UHGV virus genome: UHGV-1315295
Origin: a virus
Strand: one strand, 5' to 3'
Length of the DNA: 37,798 nucleotides
The notes below the pieces were generated by a model that saw only the letters and a list, made by a program, of their open reading frames with translations, had not been told where the DNA came from and did no database searches. Within the stretch, counting starts at the first letter, position 1. Each line of letters starts with the position of its first letter. Position numbers and translations under genes: made by a program. Below are positions 1,363-9,392 of the stretch, one piece after another.

Positions 1363-4300
1363 ATGGTCAGTCAAACCAATGAACAAGCATTAGAGTCGGC
1401 CATTGAGAAATGTCTGGCTGGGATCAGTACTGAAGAGCTCAAAGAGGGGCTGAGTCAGCAGTCACTGGGTGCTGGATACTTCATTGGTGCTGCTAGTGAC
1501 TTTAATATGCAATATGCCATTGATGAACGTTTTTTCTGGCAATTTCTGCAAAAGACACAAGAAGTAGAGTTGGCCAAACTGCAAAAGAACAACCCCTCAG
1601 ATTGGCAACGTAAGTTACTCGAACGATTTGACCGACTGATTAAGAAGCATGGCATTCTTCATTTACTTAAGAAAGGGCTAAGCGTAGACGATGCTCATTT
1701 CAATTTGCTCTATCCAGCCCCTTTGGCAAGTAGTAGTGAGAAGGTAAAGCAAAACTTTGCAGATAACGTGTTTAGTTGTACTCGCCAAGTGCGCTATTCC
1801 ATGGTAAATCCCCTACAAGAAATCGACATGGTATTGTTTATCAACGGAATACCCTTGATAACGCTGGAGTTGAAGAACGCATGGACCGGGCAAACAGCAC
1901 GTTATCACGGCCAAAAGCAGTATCGAGATGATCGGGATGCAACTCAGCCATTGCTGACCTTTGGCCGCTGCCTAGTGCATATGGCGGTCGATACCGACGA
2001 AGTGTATATGACCACCAAGTTATCAGGTAGCAGTACATTCTTCTTGCCGTTCAATAAAGGTCACAATCTTGGACAAGGCAACCCGCCGAATCCATCTGGC
2101 CATAAAACGGCATACCTATGGCAAGAAGTATTCACTAAAGACAGCTTGGCGAATATTATTCAGCATTTTGTGCGTCTGGATGGGTCAAGCAAAGATCCAT
2201 TACCCAAGCGAACCCTGTTCTTTCCTCGATACCATCAATTGGATGTGGTGAGAAAATTAGTAGACCATGCCGCCCAGCACGGTGTCGGTCAGACTTACTT
2301 AATTCAACACTCAGCCGGTTCAGGTAAGTCTAACTCGATTACCTGGGCAGCTTATCAGCTAATTGAAACCTATCCTGCTTCGTCTGATGTGGCAGGCGGA
2401 AAAAGCTTGGAGCAGCCGTTGTTTGACTCTGTGATTGTGGTCACCGATAGACGCCTATTGGACAAGCAGCTGCGGGATAACATTAAAGAGTTTTCTGAAG
2501 TAAAGAACATTATTGCCCCAGCGAATAAGTCTTCTGAGCTTAAGCAGGCGCTGGAGAATGGCAAAAAGATTATTATAACGACGATTCAGAAATTCCCGTT
2601 CATTATTGATGGTATCGCCGATCTTAGTGACAAGCGCTTTGCAGTGATCATCGATGAAGCACACAGCTCACAGTCTGGTTCGGCGCATGACAATATGAAC
2701 CGAGCGATGGGCAAGTCTGAAGTCGAAGAGGCAGAAGATGCTCAGGATAAAATCCTTCAGGCGATGAGATCGCGTAAGATGCGCGGGAATGCGTCGTACC
2801 TGGCATTTACAGCGACACCAAAAAACAGCACTTTGGAGAAATTTGGTCAACGCCAAGAAGATGGCTCTTACAAGCCGTTTCACTTGTATTCGATGAAACA
2901 AGCCATTGAAGAAGGCTTCATCTTGGATGTGCTGGCAAATTATACGACGTACAAAAGTTATTATGAGATTGAGAAATCAATTGCTGATAACCCTGAGTTT
3001 GATACCAAAAAGGCGCAGAAAAAACTCAGAGCTTATGTAGAACGAAGCCAGCAAACAATTGATATCAAGGCAGAGATTATGCTGGAGCATTTTGTTCCGC
3101 ATGTCGTGAATACGAAAAAGCTCAAAGGTAAAGGTAAAGGAATGGTGGTCACTCAAAATATTGAGGCGGCCATTCGATACTACAAAGCGATAAGGCGAAT
3201 ACTTGAGGAGCAAGGAAACCCGTTTAAAGTTGCCATTGCTTTCTCAGGAACCAAAGAAGTTGATGGTATTGAATATACCGAAGCAGATATTAATGGTTTT
3301 GCCGAGTCAGATACCAAAGATATGTTTGATACCGATGAGTATCGACTTTTAGTGGTTGCTAACAAGTATCTGACTGGGTTTGACCAGCCTAAGCTTTGCG
3401 CCATGTATGTAGATAAGAAGCTCGCCAGTGTCTTGTGTGTTCAGGCGCTATCTAGGCTCAATCGCAGTGCACCTAAGCTAGGGAAGAAAACAGAAGACTT
3501 GTTTATCCTGGATTTTTTCAACTCGGTTGAAGATATTCAATCAGCATTCGATCCTTTCTATACAGCAACGTCATTGTCCCAAGCTACAGATATAAACGTA
3601 CTGCACGAGTTGAAAGATGAAATGGACGATGTCGGTGTGTACGAGTGGTATGAAGTTGAAGACTTTGTGACGCGTTATTTCAAGAATGAAGACGCCCAAA
3701 CACTCAGTCCAATCATTGATATTGCCGCAGCGCGGTTTGACCATGAACTAGATCTTGAAGCTGAAGCTAAAGTGGACTTTAAGATTAAAGCCAAACAGTT
3801 CGTTAAAATCTATGGGCAGATGGCTTCTATCATGCCTTATGAAATGGTCAGCTGGGAAAAACTGTTTTGGTTCCTGAAGTTTTTAATACCGAAATTGAAA
3901 GTGGAAGATCCCGATGCTAATGCTATTGATGAGCTTCTCGATTCTGTCGATCTGAGTTCATACGGTTTGCAACGTGTGAAGCTTAACCACAGCATTAAAC
4001 TTAGTGACCAAGAAGCGGAGCTTGATCCTCAAAATCCGAACCCACGTGGGGTGCATGGCGGTGAAAAAGAAACTGACCCGCTGGATGAAATCATTCGCAC
4101 ATTTAATGAGCGATGGTTCCAGGGCTGGAGTGCCACACCTGAAGAGCAAAAGGTTAAGTTCGTGAACATCGCTGAAAGTATCCGCAATCACCCTGACTTC
4201 GAATCGAAATACAAAAACAACCCAGATCCCCATAATCGAAATTTGGCCTTCGAAAAAATGCTCAAGGAAATCATGCTGCAACGCCGTAAAGATGAACTTG

Positions 4301-4380
4301 AGCTCTACAAGTTGTTCGCAGGAGATTCAGCATTTAAAGCCTCGTGGACGCAAAGTATGCAACGAATGGTGGGTAGGTAG
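1363..4380 (+). CDS. hsdR: Type I restriction enzyme R subunit (HsdR), DEAH-box helicase/nuclease
   Basis: 1005 aa; N-terminal nuclease motif [18 protein letters not shown]; Walker A GSGKSNS; DEAH box IIDEAHSS; size and order typical of HsdR. Confidence 0.9.
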
Positions 4381-4394
4381 AAAGGAGTGATGGT

Positions 4395-5080
<686 letters not shown>

Positions 5081-5260: not shown

Positions 5261-5536
5261 ATGAAGACTTTGGTTCGCATTTCATCTAGTACCGACTATG
5301 ACGTTTACCCGTTGTTCATGATCAAGTGCGACGGGCTGAACGATGAAGAAATTCAAGCGGCAATTGAACGCAATCTAGTTGAATACACAGGAATGGATGC
5401 GGATTCTATTTATATCGATGATGACGGTGTTTGTTGGCACAACGGTAGCTGCTGGTACGTCGACGACACAATGCTGGTAAGCGATGAAGACGCGGCCCAT
5501 CTTGAGCGCATTTTGGGTATCAGCACTTTTGAGTGA
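5261..5536 (+). CDS. Hypothetical small acidic protein (91 aa)
   Basis: ATG 5261 preceded by AGGAG; ORF track frame; start context AGGAGAAAACACATG shared with other genes in the window. Confidence 0.45.
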   Translation: MKTLVRISSSTDYDVYPLFMIKCDGLNDEEIQAAIERNLVEYTGMDADSIYIDDDGVCWHNGSCWYVDDTMLVSDEDAAHLERILGISTFE

Positions 5537-5751
5537 TATTTACAGCAAAAATATATAAGTTAGCATTTACCTATCATTAAAATTTTATTAGATATCACGT
5601 TACTTATTACCTCGATAGCCTTTGTGCTCGACTGCATCTTCACAGGGGCAATCCGTAAAGCGCTGGCGCCTGTTAATGATGTGATGATCAATGCGCTGGC
5701 CGTAGTACTGGTCTTCGACTCAGCATTAGGCGTTTTCAAAGGAGTCGTGGC

Positions 5752-6087
5752 ATGAAGAAAACAGCCCTGGTACTGGCGCTGCTCACTCTCCCCGTCTTTG
5801 CGGACACACATGTCTATGAGTGCGAAATGTTTGTGGTCGAAGCGAAAAACGGCCTGATCCGCAACGTCGTCAAAGCTAATTACGGCGCGATGGTTGTGGA
5901 CCGCGGCGAACAGTTTTATGTGGTACGCGATAATCGTGTCCTGTCTTCCCCGTTTCTCACTAAACGTAACGGCGAACTATCTGGCGTAGGTAAAGATAGG
6001 TTCGTTTACAACAAATCGGGTGATGTATACGGCGTTCACGCGAAGAACGACAGCTACCTTTTCGATGACTGCAAGGAGATTAGTTGA
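5752..6087 (+). CDS. Hypothetical secreted protein (predicted N-terminal signal peptide)
   Basis: MKKTALVLALLTLPVFA-DTH: charged N-terminus, hydrophobic core and A-x-A-like cleavage region; GGAG RBS. Confidence 0.5.
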   Translation: MKKTALVLALLTLPVFADTHVYECEMFVVEAKNGLIRNVVKANYGAMVVDRGEQFYVVRDNRVLSSPFLTKRNGELSGVGKDRFVYNKSGDVYGVHAKNDSYLFDDCKEIS

Positions 6088-6299
6088 TGGCGGTTACACT
6101 GACAGGTCTGGAAATCGAAAAAACAAGCGGCTACTGGCGTGCCAAAGGGTTCAAGCAGTCCGGCGTACTGGAACGACTGGAACGTGAAGATGGGTATATT
6201 GTTCACCAGCGACGTGAATGGCGCATGTACGATCCGGAAACAGGTAAGCTCGCAACGAAGGCCGGGACACTCTGGGGTCTGCTGAAGAAAATCCACTGA
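6084..6299 (+). CDS. Hypothetical protein (71 aa)
   Basis: ORF track; start overlaps the upstream stop, suggesting translational coupling with 5752-6087. Confidence 0.4.
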   Translation: MMAVTLTGLEIEKTSGYWRAKGFKQSGVLERLEREDGYIVHQRREWRMYDPETGKLATKAGTLWGLLKKIH

Positions 6300-6308
6300 T
6301 AACACTAT

Positions 6309-6946
6309 CCACTGCGGTGAGTAGCCAGCTCACCGCGTGTGAATCCGGCTCATAACCACTGTAGCGAGTAGAACACCCTTCAGGTATGCACCCCAACCAC
6401 TGTAGTGAGTAGAACACCATTCGGGTATGCACCCCAACCACTGTAGTGAGCAACCCCCCTGCCACGATATCAACTATCCACTGTAGTGAGTAAATTGGTG
6501 ATTATCGGGGTCGCTATACACTGTAGTGAGTAAACAGGCGTTCACTGACTACAAACAACCACTATAGAGAGTGATGGAATGCTCCCTCCAGCGGATATCC
6601 ACTATGGAGAGTAAATCTTCGCTGTTTTAAACGGATATCCACTCACTACAGTGGATAGAGGTCAAGTCAGCCAATTCTGCTCTTCACAGTGGATAGTCAA
6701 CAATGAGGAGAGCGACGATAACCGCTGTAGAGAGTAGACTTAACAGAGATACCCAGTGACCGCTAACCTCTCAGCCCTTGTTTTATCTATGTTTGCAACC
6801 ACTAACATTTACTTCGCGATTTGTGCGCACTGCCTACAGTGGTTATTCTTCGGTTTCTTTTACTCACTACAGTGGATATTGCATTTCCGATAAACAAAAA
6901 GGCTCACTACAGTAGATAGTGAGCCTTTTTACTCTCTACAGTGGTT
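6309..6946. repeat. Iteron array downstream of repA (incA-like copy-control locus): about 15 copies of CCACTGTAGTGAGTA-type repeat in both orientations
   Basis: Copies at 6309-6323, 6356-6370, 6397-6411, 6438-6452, 6478-6492, 6518-6532, 6559-6573, 6599-6613, 6722-6736 (forward) and 6641-6654, 6682-6696, 6834-6846, 6861-6878, 6903-6918, 6931-6946 (reverse); includes a 41-bp tandem duplication 6356-6396/6397-6437. Confidence 0.8.
6896..6930. terminator. Bidirectional hairpin terminator at the repA 3' end, incorporating an iteron
   Basis: AAAAA-AGGCTCACTA-cagtag-TAGTGAGCCT-TTTTT: 10-bp perfect stem with A-run and T-run on either side. Confidence 0.5.
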
Positions 6947-6949
6947 GGG

Positions 6950-8005
6950 CTATTTGCGAGCCTTTGCCTTGCGCAGCTCTTCGAGAATCGCCAGTTCTTC
7001 CTTGCTCAACATGACCATTTCCCCGTCTTTTTCTTCAGGGGCAACATCGATAATGTCCTCCGGATCATCACCTGGCAAGATATCTTCTGGCTCTTCAGGC
7101 GTAGCCATAGATGGCGGCAGTGCCGAACGTAACTTCGGCCGTCTATAGTGGATGACGAAGTAGACCGAGCTGCCGCGTTTCACTTCAGTGTAATCGAGAT
7201 AGCCGATCTCTCGCAGCTGCTCCATCGCCTTCCTGACTGTCGCATTCTGGGTAATGGTGCGGCTGGTTAAGTTAAGTCTGGCGCGTAAGCGAGCCAATGA
7301 GATTGGCGCCGGGTCTGGTGGCAAACTTTCAATGAAGGTGTAGAGCGCCTGCGCGGATTCTTTTCTGGAGAGTTCGTTGATGGCCCGAAGTTGCAAAAGC
7401 ACCTTTTTGTCGAACTGGTAAAGTTCGAAAATCTTAGGATCGGCCTTCAGTTCGACCGTGTCATTCTTGGTACTGTACTTTGCCGTCTGCACAAGGTGCG
7501 TAACGTAATACTCTTCAGAGCCTTTGCTGCGGAATGAGATGGTGTTTGTGGCGATACGACTTAGAGAGCTGTCCAGGCGCTTACGTAACTTCGCGGACGA
7601 TCTGGCTGTTGGTATGCCACAAAGTCTGACGAACTCGACGAACGGCAACGTGACGGTGTCACCAACAACCTTGTGCTTGGCGAACGCGTGGATGATGCCC
7701 ACCCATGTTTTGAAATCGTTATCCATATCAAGACGAAGACCAGCAATCCTTATATCCTCGTACCCTTCGGCTTTGGCCAGAGACAGCTGTTTGAGTTCAG
7801 CGGAGGCGTCCATAGAGACCATTTGCCCCTTTCTACCCCTGGATGTCGATTTCAGCGTCGGAACGAAGAGACCAAGACGCATCAGAGCAACAGGTTGAAC
7901 TGTGTTGTTGGTGTTAGGAACTAACGTAACAACTTCGCCGGTCTTTTTGTCTGTTTCGGAAAATGCTTCGCTTATCGCAATGTTTTTATTGTCGTTTACG
8001 CTCAT
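6950..8005 (-). CDS. repA: Replication initiator RepA (P1/IncY-type iteron-binding initiator)
   Basis: 351 aa; blocks [64 protein letters not shown] match my recollection of P1 RepA; flanked on both sides by iterons. Confidence 0.8.
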
Positions 8006-8048
8006 TCCAAATGTCTCTTTTTATTCGACGGCTTGGGTGCCTTTACTG

Positions 8049-8168
8049 ATTACAGTGGATAGTAGCACCCATCACAGTGGTTATCCTACCGCCTACAGCG
8101 GTTTTTCTACTCTCCATAGTGGTTGATTTACTCTCTATAGTGGTTGTTATTCTCACTATAGTGGATAT
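8049..8168. repeat. Iteron cluster 1 upstream of repA (origin/incC-like), 6 copies
   Basis: ACAGTGGATAG, CACAGTGGTTAT, CTACAGCGGTTTT, CTCCATAGTGGTTG, CTCTATAGTGGTTG, CACTATAGTGGATA; same family as the downstream iterons. Confidence 0.75.
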
Positions 8169-8214
8169 CGATAACCTCTAAAGCCATGTGGCACAACGGT
8201 TTGCAGGGGCCGGG

Positions 8215-8273
8215 GATCTCTTTGGGTCTTTGTGGTTCTCTTTGGTTCTAACAGGGATCTGAATTACTGGATC
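8215..8273. promoter_or_regulatory. GATC cluster 1 (3 Dam sites) adjacent to iteron cluster 1
   Basis: GATC at 8215, 8256, 8270 within GGGATCTC / GGGATCTG / GGATCGAG heptamer-like units. Confidence 0.4.
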
Positions 8274-8446
8274 GAGCCTGTGTATAAAAATCAGATAATT
8301 ACAAAATCAGGCATCACTCCCCTTCTGGGGATAATGTGTGATCGAAATAAACACGCCGCAACGCAAAATTTACAATATTTCCAAGAATATCAGCCATCTG
8401 CCGCAGAAAAACAGGCTCGGAGTTATCCAGTTAAAACATTGTCTCC

Positions 8447-8551
8447 TACTCACTACAGTGGATACCGACTACTCTCCAGAGAGGTTGTTTTGCTCTTCAT
8501 AGCGGTTATTATGCTCTCTACAGTGGTTATTTTGCTCCCTATAGTGGATAG
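8447..8551. repeat. Iteron cluster 2 (5 copies), a second origin-like module
   Basis: TACTCACTACAGTGGATA, CTCTTCATAGCGGTTAT, CTCTCTACAGTGGTTAT, CTCCCTATAGTGGATAG plus one degenerate copy. Confidence 0.7.
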
Positions 8552-8590
8552 TAACCCCTTCTCAAGCCAGTAACCGCAAGCGCTGGAGAC

Positions 8591-8648
8591 GATCGGGGAT
8601 CTCTTTTGATCTTCTGTAGGATCTCTCTGGGGATCTAAATATTGGATC
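8591..8648. promoter_or_regulatory. GATC cluster 2: six GATC sites in 58 bp
   Basis: GATC at 8591, 8598, 8608, 8620, 8632, 8645; the flank resembles the 8205-8280 segment (duplicated module). Confidence 0.5.
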
Positions 8649-8747
8649 GGACCTGTGAATAAAGTGAATAAGTAAACAGGCATTTGCAAACTCCGGTGCG
8701 CCTTATCCGTTATCGTTGCCCCGGACAAAATTATTTGAACAAGAATT

Positions 8748-9392
8748 ATGGATCTTAAACGCACGCGCTGGGTTCGCCGTCTTGAAGATGGCTCCTACAC
8801 CATTGAATCAAACACTAGTCTGAACAAACTGAAGTTGCTCTGCGACCTTTGCGGCATTGCTTCGAAATGCCCGATTAACGAAACCCGGCTTAAACTCCAC
8901 GACGCCGGTGCGCATTTCCACCTAAACAGCTGCATACGTTACGTGCCACTACTAGCATTTCGTAAACCGATCATCGGATTGGATGCTCCCTACTTCAACA
9001 CACTGCGCTCTGGTGTCACTTGGCGAGATCGTGTCGAACCTGGCAAACTCGTTTGTCTGGTTGAAGCTGATACCGGAAATATCATCCGGTTCGGGAGAGT
9101 TGATAAGGTCTACTCAGGCCCGGTGGATGAAATGCTGCGGAAACACAGCCGATTTAACCATCTCTGCATGGGCGGAGAGAAGATTGAGAAGGTTGGCGAA
9201 GTAATTCGCAAATCTTACGGACACTTTCTGAATGATAACAGCCTTCTGACAGCCATTTACATTCGCCATGTCGATCGGGAGTTCGACACGGAGTATCACA
9301 GTGTTGAAGAGTTGAATCTTGTAGACCCTCGTCCAAAAGCTGGGGTAATAGACATCAGCAGAGCGCGTCAGAAGCCCTCAGAGACGTTTTAA
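8748..9392 (+). CDS. Hypothetical protein (214 aa)
   Basis: ORF track; first gene after the origin-like region. Confidence 0.5.
   Translation: MDLKRTRWVRRLEDGSYTIESNTSLNKLKLLCDLCGIASKCPINETRLKLHDAGAHFHLNSCIRYVPLLAFRKPIIGLDAPYFNTLRSGVTWRDRVEPGKLVCLVEADTGNIIRFGRVDKVYSGPVDEMLRKHSRFNHLCMGGEKIEKVGEVIRKSYGHFLNDNSLLTAIYIRHVDREFDTEYHSVEELNLVDPRPKAGVIDISRARQKPSETF

Follow-up and report, generated by a model that had tools for sequence, protein, structure and literature searches.

A predicted iteron-based copy-control array downstream of repA in the replicon of an SSU5-type phage-plasmid

Results

Genes and repeats at the locus

The replicon described here lies in a 37.8-kb stretch of viral DNA (37,798 nucleotides, the whole of the sequence analysed), which is referred to below as the window. 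A non-coding gap of 650 bp (6300–6949) separates a gene for a 71-aa protein on the plus strand (stop at 6299) from the stop codon of repA at 6950, and this gap is occupied by an array of short repeats. The motif CCACTGTAGTGAGTA, searched with up to three mismatches, gave 21 matches in the window against 0.59 expected, and none of 100 shuffled sequences reached 21. All of the matches fell within 6309–6944 or 8044–8547, with 14 of them inside 6309–6946 and the other seven just upstream of repA. The sites of this motif then served to construct a 24-nt weight matrix for an iteron scan, which revealed 15 strong sites (20–34 bits) and one weak site (16 bits) within 6304–6949, in agreement with the approximately 15 copies of the original prediction. 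The iteron consensus spans about 19–21 bp and reads (A/T)(A/T)CCACT(G/A)TAGnGAGTA. The features of the gap and of the adjoining initiator gene are as follows:

6304–6949: whole downstream array, 15 strong and 1 weak RepA-type iterons (motif search and weight matrix)
6304, 6351, 6392, 6433, 6473, 6513, 6554, 6594 and 6717, plus strand: strong iterons (weight matrix)
6636, 6674, 6824, 6857, 6897 and 6926, minus strand: strong iterons (weight matrix)
6304–6617, plus strand: distal block of 8 iterons, opposite in direction to the origin iterons; it is in this block that the number of repeats varies
6313–6337, plus strand: distal hairpin, holding the 3' half of the distal-most iteron and lying directly after the 71-aa gene
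6351–6432, plus strand: two tandem 41-bp units (iteron and spacer), identical at 38 of 41 positions
6576–6599, minus strand: weak P1-like iteron of 16 bits, GATATCCGCTGGAGGGAGC
6636–6740: central mixed block with iterons at 6636 (minus), 6674 (minus) and 6717 (plus) (weight matrix)
6741–6823: conserved iteron-free segment of 83 bp; the flanking iterons are 107 bp apart, start to start
6824–6949, minus strand: proximal block of 4 iterons, oriented like the origin iterons
6896–6930: terminator-like hairpin, A5-stem-loop-stem-T5, enclosing the iteron at 6897–6920
6950–8005, minus strand: repA; its 351-aa product, which carries the annotation RepA in relatives, belongs to the RepFIB/P1 RepA group of Rep3-family initiators

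The array was expected to start right after repA, and it does: the first iteron (6926–6949) abuts the stop codon (6950–6952), and the four iterons of the proximal block lie 0, 29, 69 and 102 nt from that stop. The orientations had been counted as eight forward and seven reverse; the scan instead gave nine sites on the plus strand and six on the minus strand (seven with the weak site at 6576). Read from the distal end to the repA end, the orientation string is '+++++++-+--+----', and the origin sites are all '-'. The spacing, earlier described as irregular, is so only in the repA-proximal half, whereas in the distal block the iterons follow one another regularly, at 47, 41, 41, 40, 40, 41 and 40 bp, or about four helical turns.

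The array contains no GATC sites (2.7 expected at the density of the window) and no DnaA boxes, matches to which were found in the window only at 8279, 8326 and 8654. It is therefore probably not itself an origin. Its G+C content (39–57% in 100-bp windows) is no lower than that of the flanks, which indicates the absence of an AT-rich unwinding region. The original prediction presupposed that the repeats are not part of a coding sequence, and this assumption withstood the analysis: the four overlapping ORFs of the gap (104, 47, 45 and 45 aa) have no Pfam matches, no CDS is annotated inside the array in 10 of the 11 records (pHCM2 alone has one, a 46-aa 'hypothetical protein'), and the 41-bp indels between relatives break any reading frame.

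The hairpin next to repA (6896–6930) has a folding energy of −23.3 kcal/mol (z = −4.4), which none of 200 shuffled sequences equalled. As it carries an A5 and a T5 arm, it reads as a terminator in both directions. The predicted embedding of one iteron in a bidirectional terminator thus appears correct, given the strong hairpin, the T-runs on both strands and the iteron within it, and the element is probably the terminator of repA. It is a conserved element, in which CP044180 shows a single compensatory change in the stem and pMT a single mismatch. A reading of the array as a structured RNA was rejected, because an Rfam scan of 5500–9000 returned only a sub-threshold Thr_leader on the terminator hairpin (24 bits vs 55 for gathering; E = 0.18). 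The distal hairpin (6313–6337) folds at −21.2 kcal/mol (z = −3.3); its columns are invariant in the family, and it has no T-run. At each end of the array, the GTGAG half of the iteron thus forms the basis of an inverted repeat, and these two hairpins could be transcription insulators or binding sites for RepA dimers.

Two further elements are located inside the array. The weak iteron at 6576 matches the P1 iteron consensus at 14 of 19 positions, the best match in the window; its core is conserved in the family, and it stands head to head with the iteron at 6594, with which it has a GATATC centre in common. In the iteron-free segment (6741–6823), two sites that resemble half an iteron, GACCGCTAAC and AACCACTAAC, lie about 42 bp from each other, and 57% of the columns of this segment are invariant vs 42% in the other spacers. 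Part of the segment (6761–6781) resembles sequence found beside both origin iteron clusters (cf. 8169–8189).

Origin-like modules upstream of repA

The same iteron occurs upstream of repA in two clusters, six sites at 8040–8169 and five at 8443–8552, all on the minus strand and with a spacing of 21–23 bp. A single weight matrix finds both the downstream and the upstream iterons, and their consensus sequences are nearly identical. Each cluster belongs to a module with the composition of an origin:

8040–8287, minus strand: origin-like module 1, with 6 iterons at a spacing of 21–22 bp, 3 GATC sites (8215–8270) and the DnaA box TTATACACA (8279–8287)
8443–8662, minus strand: origin-like module 2, with 5 iterons, 6 GATC sites in 55 bp (8591–8645) and the DnaA box TTATTCACA (8654–8662)

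Both DnaA boxes match TTATNCACA, and each module also carries a GGCTTnAGA motif. The GATC cluster is denser in module 2, and a promoter-like site for repA lies inside the iterons of module 1. The two modules form a tandem duplication (8036–8723, minus strand) with a period of 383 bp and a column identity of 78%, and both are conserved in SSU5, pMT, pHCM2 and Cyrano. Since the motif of the downstream array is also present in these clusters, beside GATC clusters and DnaA boxes, it can be regarded as the origin motif of the initiator.

RepA and the neighbouring genes

The RepA of the window is 64% identical to the RepFIB initiator of the F plasmid (E = 2e-144) and 49% identical to P1 RepA over 267 aa (E = 1e-92). 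P1 RepA and RepFIB Rep are themselves 48% identical, so that the three proteins constitute one family. In Pfam, Rep3_N was found above the cut-off and Rep3_C just under it (20.7 bits vs 21.1), and no NCBIfam model matched the window RepA, P1 RepA or the F RepFIB Rep. The protein has no sequence similarity to RepE of RepFIA, and a search by sequence among solved structures returned none for RepA. Its C-terminus (6950–7120) is an acidic, proline-rich extension of about 55 aa that is absent from P1 RepA (286 aa) and aligns only partly with the tail of the F RepFIB Rep. Within the repA coding sequence there is a weak iteron-like site of 13 bits (7133–7156, minus strand), which occupies the same position in SSU5.

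No parAB genes are present within about 2–3 kb on either side of the array in the window or in the annotated relatives. Farther from repA, a gene for the R subunit of a type I restriction enzyme (1363–4380, 1005 aa), found also in CP010244 but not in the other relatives, is followed by fragmented ORFs resembling an IS3-family transposase (4395–4841 and 4838–5080). The R subunit and the transposase fragments (1363–5080) represent accessory cargo just upstream of the replicon.

Distribution and conservation of the replicon

A 2.5-kb region of the replicon matches 340 plasmid records of PLSDB, from Escherichia, Enterobacter, Yersinia, Salmonella, Citrobacter and others; these plasmids are almost all non-mobilizable and have a size of about 95–120 kb. 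Records 99.9% identical to the window exist (H29; H74, H75). MOB-suite types plasmids of this family as IncFIB, a label derived from sequence-based typing. In complete E. coli genomes, the replicon was present in 80 of 5,426 and was always plasmid-borne. Among phages, the same region matches SSU5 of Salmonella (89%) and Cyrano of Escherichia (pLF82, 82%). Relatives include Y. pestis pMT and S. Typhi pHCM2, and the replicon is thereby identified as the one for plasmid maintenance in SSU5-type phage-plasmids. In SSU5, pHCM2, pMT1/pFra and pLF82 (Cyrano), the locus is orthologous, with a DNA identity of 72–90% and an identical architecture.

The weight-matrix search originally proposed for the window and related replicons recovered the array in all 11 replicons compared, with its architecture conserved in each. 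The four iterons nearest to repA and the iteron-free 83 bp have the same positions and orientations in 11 of 11, and the next one plus-strand and two minus-strand sites are likewise kept in all 11, with a shift of about 20 bp and a gap in the alignment in the Cyrano group. None of the database records examined has iterons marked. Among open-access papers that name pHCM2 and pMT1 alongside repA, none mentions iterons of SSU5, pHCM2 or pMT1. A 2026 preprint on copy-number mutants of a phage-plasmid was considered and set aside, as it concerns an unrelated CopA/CopT (IncFII-type) replicon.

Variation in the number of 41-bp units

The original prediction included a perfect 41-bp tandem duplication inside the array. 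The duplication is real, but the two copies (6356–6396 and 6397–6437) differ at 3 of 41 positions; TRF reported a repeat at 6354–6450 with 2.4 copies (94%), and another repeat detection gave 93%. The iteron of the extra, second unit is a hybrid, with a 5' part like that of its downstream neighbour and a 3' part like that of its upstream neighbour, as expected of a product of unequal crossing-over inside iterons. The extra unit is missing in CP010244 and SSU5 and present in two identical copies in CP081792, and one 40-bp unit has been lost in like manner in CP141793. The replicons compared differ accordingly in the number of plus-strand sites in the distal block and in the total of strong sites:

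pHCM2 and Cyrano: 5 distal plus-strand sites, 12 strong sites
pMT and CP141793: 6 distal plus-strand sites, 13 strong sites
SSU5 and CP010244: 7 distal plus-strand sites; 14 strong sites in SSU5
the window: 8 distal plus-strand sites, 15 strong sites
CP081792: 9 distal plus-strand sites, 16 strong sites

A query of 751 nt spans 670, 710, 751 or 792–793 bp in those E. coli plasmids that share over 98% identity with the window, which corresponds to 13, 14, 15 or 16 iterons. The notion of a recent iteron expansion is thus supported insofar as the number of ~41-bp units is polymorphic among plasmids with an identity above 98%; the window's own copy, however, is not brand new, because of its three mismatches.

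Comparison with RepFIB and P1

The nearest characterised relative is RepFIB, ahead of P1. In RepFIB (F/P307/pO157), the iterons downstream of rep are those designated E–K (the EFGHIJ block). The array of F RepFIB abuts the rep stop and, as in the window, its most proximal site is oriented like the origin sites and the rest are inverted; the upstream iterons of RepFIB also have the 21–23-bp spacing seen here. The F iterons (aAtATAAaCTGTaGTcAGtAaA) have the 3' half CTGTAGTnAGTAAA in common with the window motif, and the two consensus sequences agree at about 17 of 21 positions by eye, with the F iterons scoring 10–17 bits on the matrix of the window family. In the 5' half, by contrast, the difference is consistent: F has TATAAG/A and the window replicon TATCCA or TAACCA, so that specificity and incompatibility probably differ from those of F RepFIB. 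The F array is also smaller, with about 6–7 downstream sites in some 270 bp vs 15–16 in 650 bp, and a cursory look at F detected neither a second upstream origin-like module nor a distal block phased at about 41 bp. F is a conjugative plasmid, whereas the host of the window replicon is a phage-plasmid. Experiments on RepFIB have shown that the determinant of control and displacement is the downstream block, which drives out a resident plasmid on its own, whereas the upstream block does not; the authors proposed Rep-mediated handcuffing of the downstream with the upstream iterons (PMC11983097). Binding of the repeats by the initiator, a rise in copy number on their deletion and incompatibility of the cloned array have been demonstrated for RepFIB in that work and are annotated for P1.

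The comparison with P1 incA suggested in the original prediction was carried out, and the position and the pattern of orientation agree. P1 incA comprises nine iterons in 285 bp from the repA stop; three, next to repA, share the direction of the origin iterons, and the six farther away run the opposite way, compared with four proximal minus-strand and eight distal plus-strand sites in the window. Its spacing is mostly 30–31 bp (three turns) vs about 41 bp (four turns) here, both being whole helical turns. The order DnaA box, GATC cluster, origin iterons (incC) overlapping PrepA, repA and control iterons is common to P1 and the window. According to the P1 record, oriR consists of a DnaA box, five Dam sites and five incC iterons overlapping PrepA, a composition like that of each of our modules, but P1 has one origin module and the window replicon two. 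The iterons themselves agree at about 9–11 of 19 positions in register. P1 has parAB after incA, whereas in the window small genes of unknown function converge on the array; both hosts are phage-plasmids. The homology of RepA, the position at the repA stop, the orientation pattern and the common origin motif together uphold the prediction of a P1-type, incA-like locus. The array departs from its relatives in having about twice as many sites, a distal block phased at four turns, hairpins that embed iterons at both ends, and two origin modules.

Discussion

Proposed function of the array

Our analysis indicates that the array is, very probably, the locus through which copy number is negatively controlled and incompatibility exerted in an iteron-regulated theta replicon of RepFIB/P1 type, carried by a phage-plasmid of the SSU5/pHCM2/pMT1/pLF82 type. 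RepA binding, titration, handcuffing, the effect on copy number and the activity of the terminator are what we infer from homology and from the anatomy of the locus. RepA expressed from the adjoining gene would bind each of the ~19–21-bp iterons. The 15–16 downstream sites would not initiate replication, since they come without a DnaA box, a GATC cluster or 21-bp phasing; they would soak up RepA instead. Contacts between RepA molecules would, in addition, pair the array with the origin iterons, in cis by looping across the ~1.1-kb repA and in trans between plasmid copies. A review attributes the same two roles, titration and handcuffing, to iterons downstream of rep (PMC12361487), and we propose that their combination blocks initiation as the copy number rises. 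The phasing at about 41 bp would set the sites of the distal block on one face of the helix, and recombination between neighbouring iterons would add or remove units of about 41 bp, giving alleles of 12–16 sites. The hairpin terminator within the array would end the transcription of repA and probably also stop transcripts arriving from the other side.

The array could instead be a passive sink, titrating RepA without any pairing with the origin, in which case control would be exerted solely via the concentration of free initiator. The 15–16 sites right beside the gene that encodes RepA would suit such a role, and titration is one of the two classical models for downstream iterons (PMC12361487). 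However, repA is probably autoregulated, because the promoter-like site lies within the origin-proximal iterons, as PrepA does in P1. Autoregulation buffers pure titration, a problem known in the P1 literature as the 'autoregulation-sequestration paradox'. Moreover, the RepFIB data favour a direct interaction between downstream and upstream iterons (PMC11983097), and the distal block, with its helical phasing and its conserved inverted orientation, points to a higher-order complex of defined form. Titration as the sole mechanism therefore seems unlikely to us.

Another explanation would be that the repeats form a decaying or neutral minisatellite, derived from duplicated origin iterons, which grows and shrinks through slippage or recombination without much of a function. 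The polymorphism of the repeat number in near-identical plasmids would fit this explanation, as would the degeneracy of several sites (16–21 bits). The conservation of the array nevertheless speaks against it. In a comparison that took in the window, SSU5, pMT, pHCM2, CP044180 and Cyrano, 78% of the columns were invariant in the iteron cores vs 42% in the spacers, with lineages down to 72–73% identity over the array. Furthermore, the eight sites nearest to repA keep their position and orientation from E. coli to Yersinia pestis (apart from the ~20-bp shift in the Cyrano group), and the homologous P1 and RepFIB arrays are functional. We consider a neutral origin of the pattern very improbable.

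Least probable of all, and barely to be credited, is a role of the repeats in some other DNA transaction, as a centromere for partition, as a barrier to replication forks or as a second origin, be it alternative or lytic: the hairpins at both ends of the repeat cluster, the conserved non-iteron core and the need of phage-plasmids for a separate lytic replication mode might point that way, but the motif is identical to that of the origin clusters flanking the repA promoter, no parAB adjoins the array, either here or in the relatives with annotation, and the array is devoid of DnaA boxes, GATC sites and an AT-rich unwinding region. The specific case of a parS-type centromere was rejected, given the lack of adjacent parAB and the identity of the motif with the origin iteron.

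The reading as a copy-control and incompatibility locus involves no new principle; it is the incA/RepFIB design extended to a larger, phased and polymorphic array. Its 15–16 sites are about double the number in incA (9) or in the RepFIB block (~6–7). The array also holds the conserved non-iteron segment at 6741–6823 and the hairpins at its ends, which go beyond what the model needs, and it may therefore have functions additional to those of incA.

Implications

The array is the predicted copy-control and incompatibility determinant of a family that includes the Yersinia pestis virulence plasmid pMT1/pFra, Salmonella Typhi pHCM2 and the SSU5/pLF82 phage-plasmids, and some plasmids of the SSU5/pMT1/pHCM2/pLF82 family carry resistance genes. 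The locations of the iterons may be of use for annotation, as the records examined leave them unmarked, and for the design of curing or displacement cassettes, in which the downstream iterons alone were the effective part in RepFIB (PMC11983097). Experiments might be rewarding on two points only, the natural polymorphism of 12–16 sites and the duplication of the origin module.

As regards the first of these, we tentatively suggest that the unit of about 41 bp, iteron plus spacer, might be a natural variable-number tandem repeat that tunes the copy number of the phage-plasmid, although we hold this to be the less probable side of the question. Unequal recombination of neighbouring iterons would generate alleles with 12–16 control sites and, if the suggestion is true, each allele would set its own copy number and, through it, the gene dosage, the stability and perhaps how lysogeny is balanced against lysis. 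The array with its hairpin caps and the pair of tandem origin modules would then make up a control complex larger than that of P1 or RepFIB.

Differences in array length among related plasmids can be read as gain or loss of iterons instead of assembly error. Variation of another kind affects the C-run after the iteron of the third 41-bp unit (window 6449–6458; L001 3241–3252; L002 3160–3168), which differs among near-identical plasmids. The window has CAACCCCCC, CP081792 has CCCCCCCCCC and CP010244 has CAAACCCTC, a difference that may reflect real homopolymer instability or sequencing error. Finally, several E. coli plasmids (H98–H102) match the array only from about position 6354 of the window onwards and in two or three separate places, which suggests a rearrangement, or the breakpoint of an insertion, where the array ends distally.
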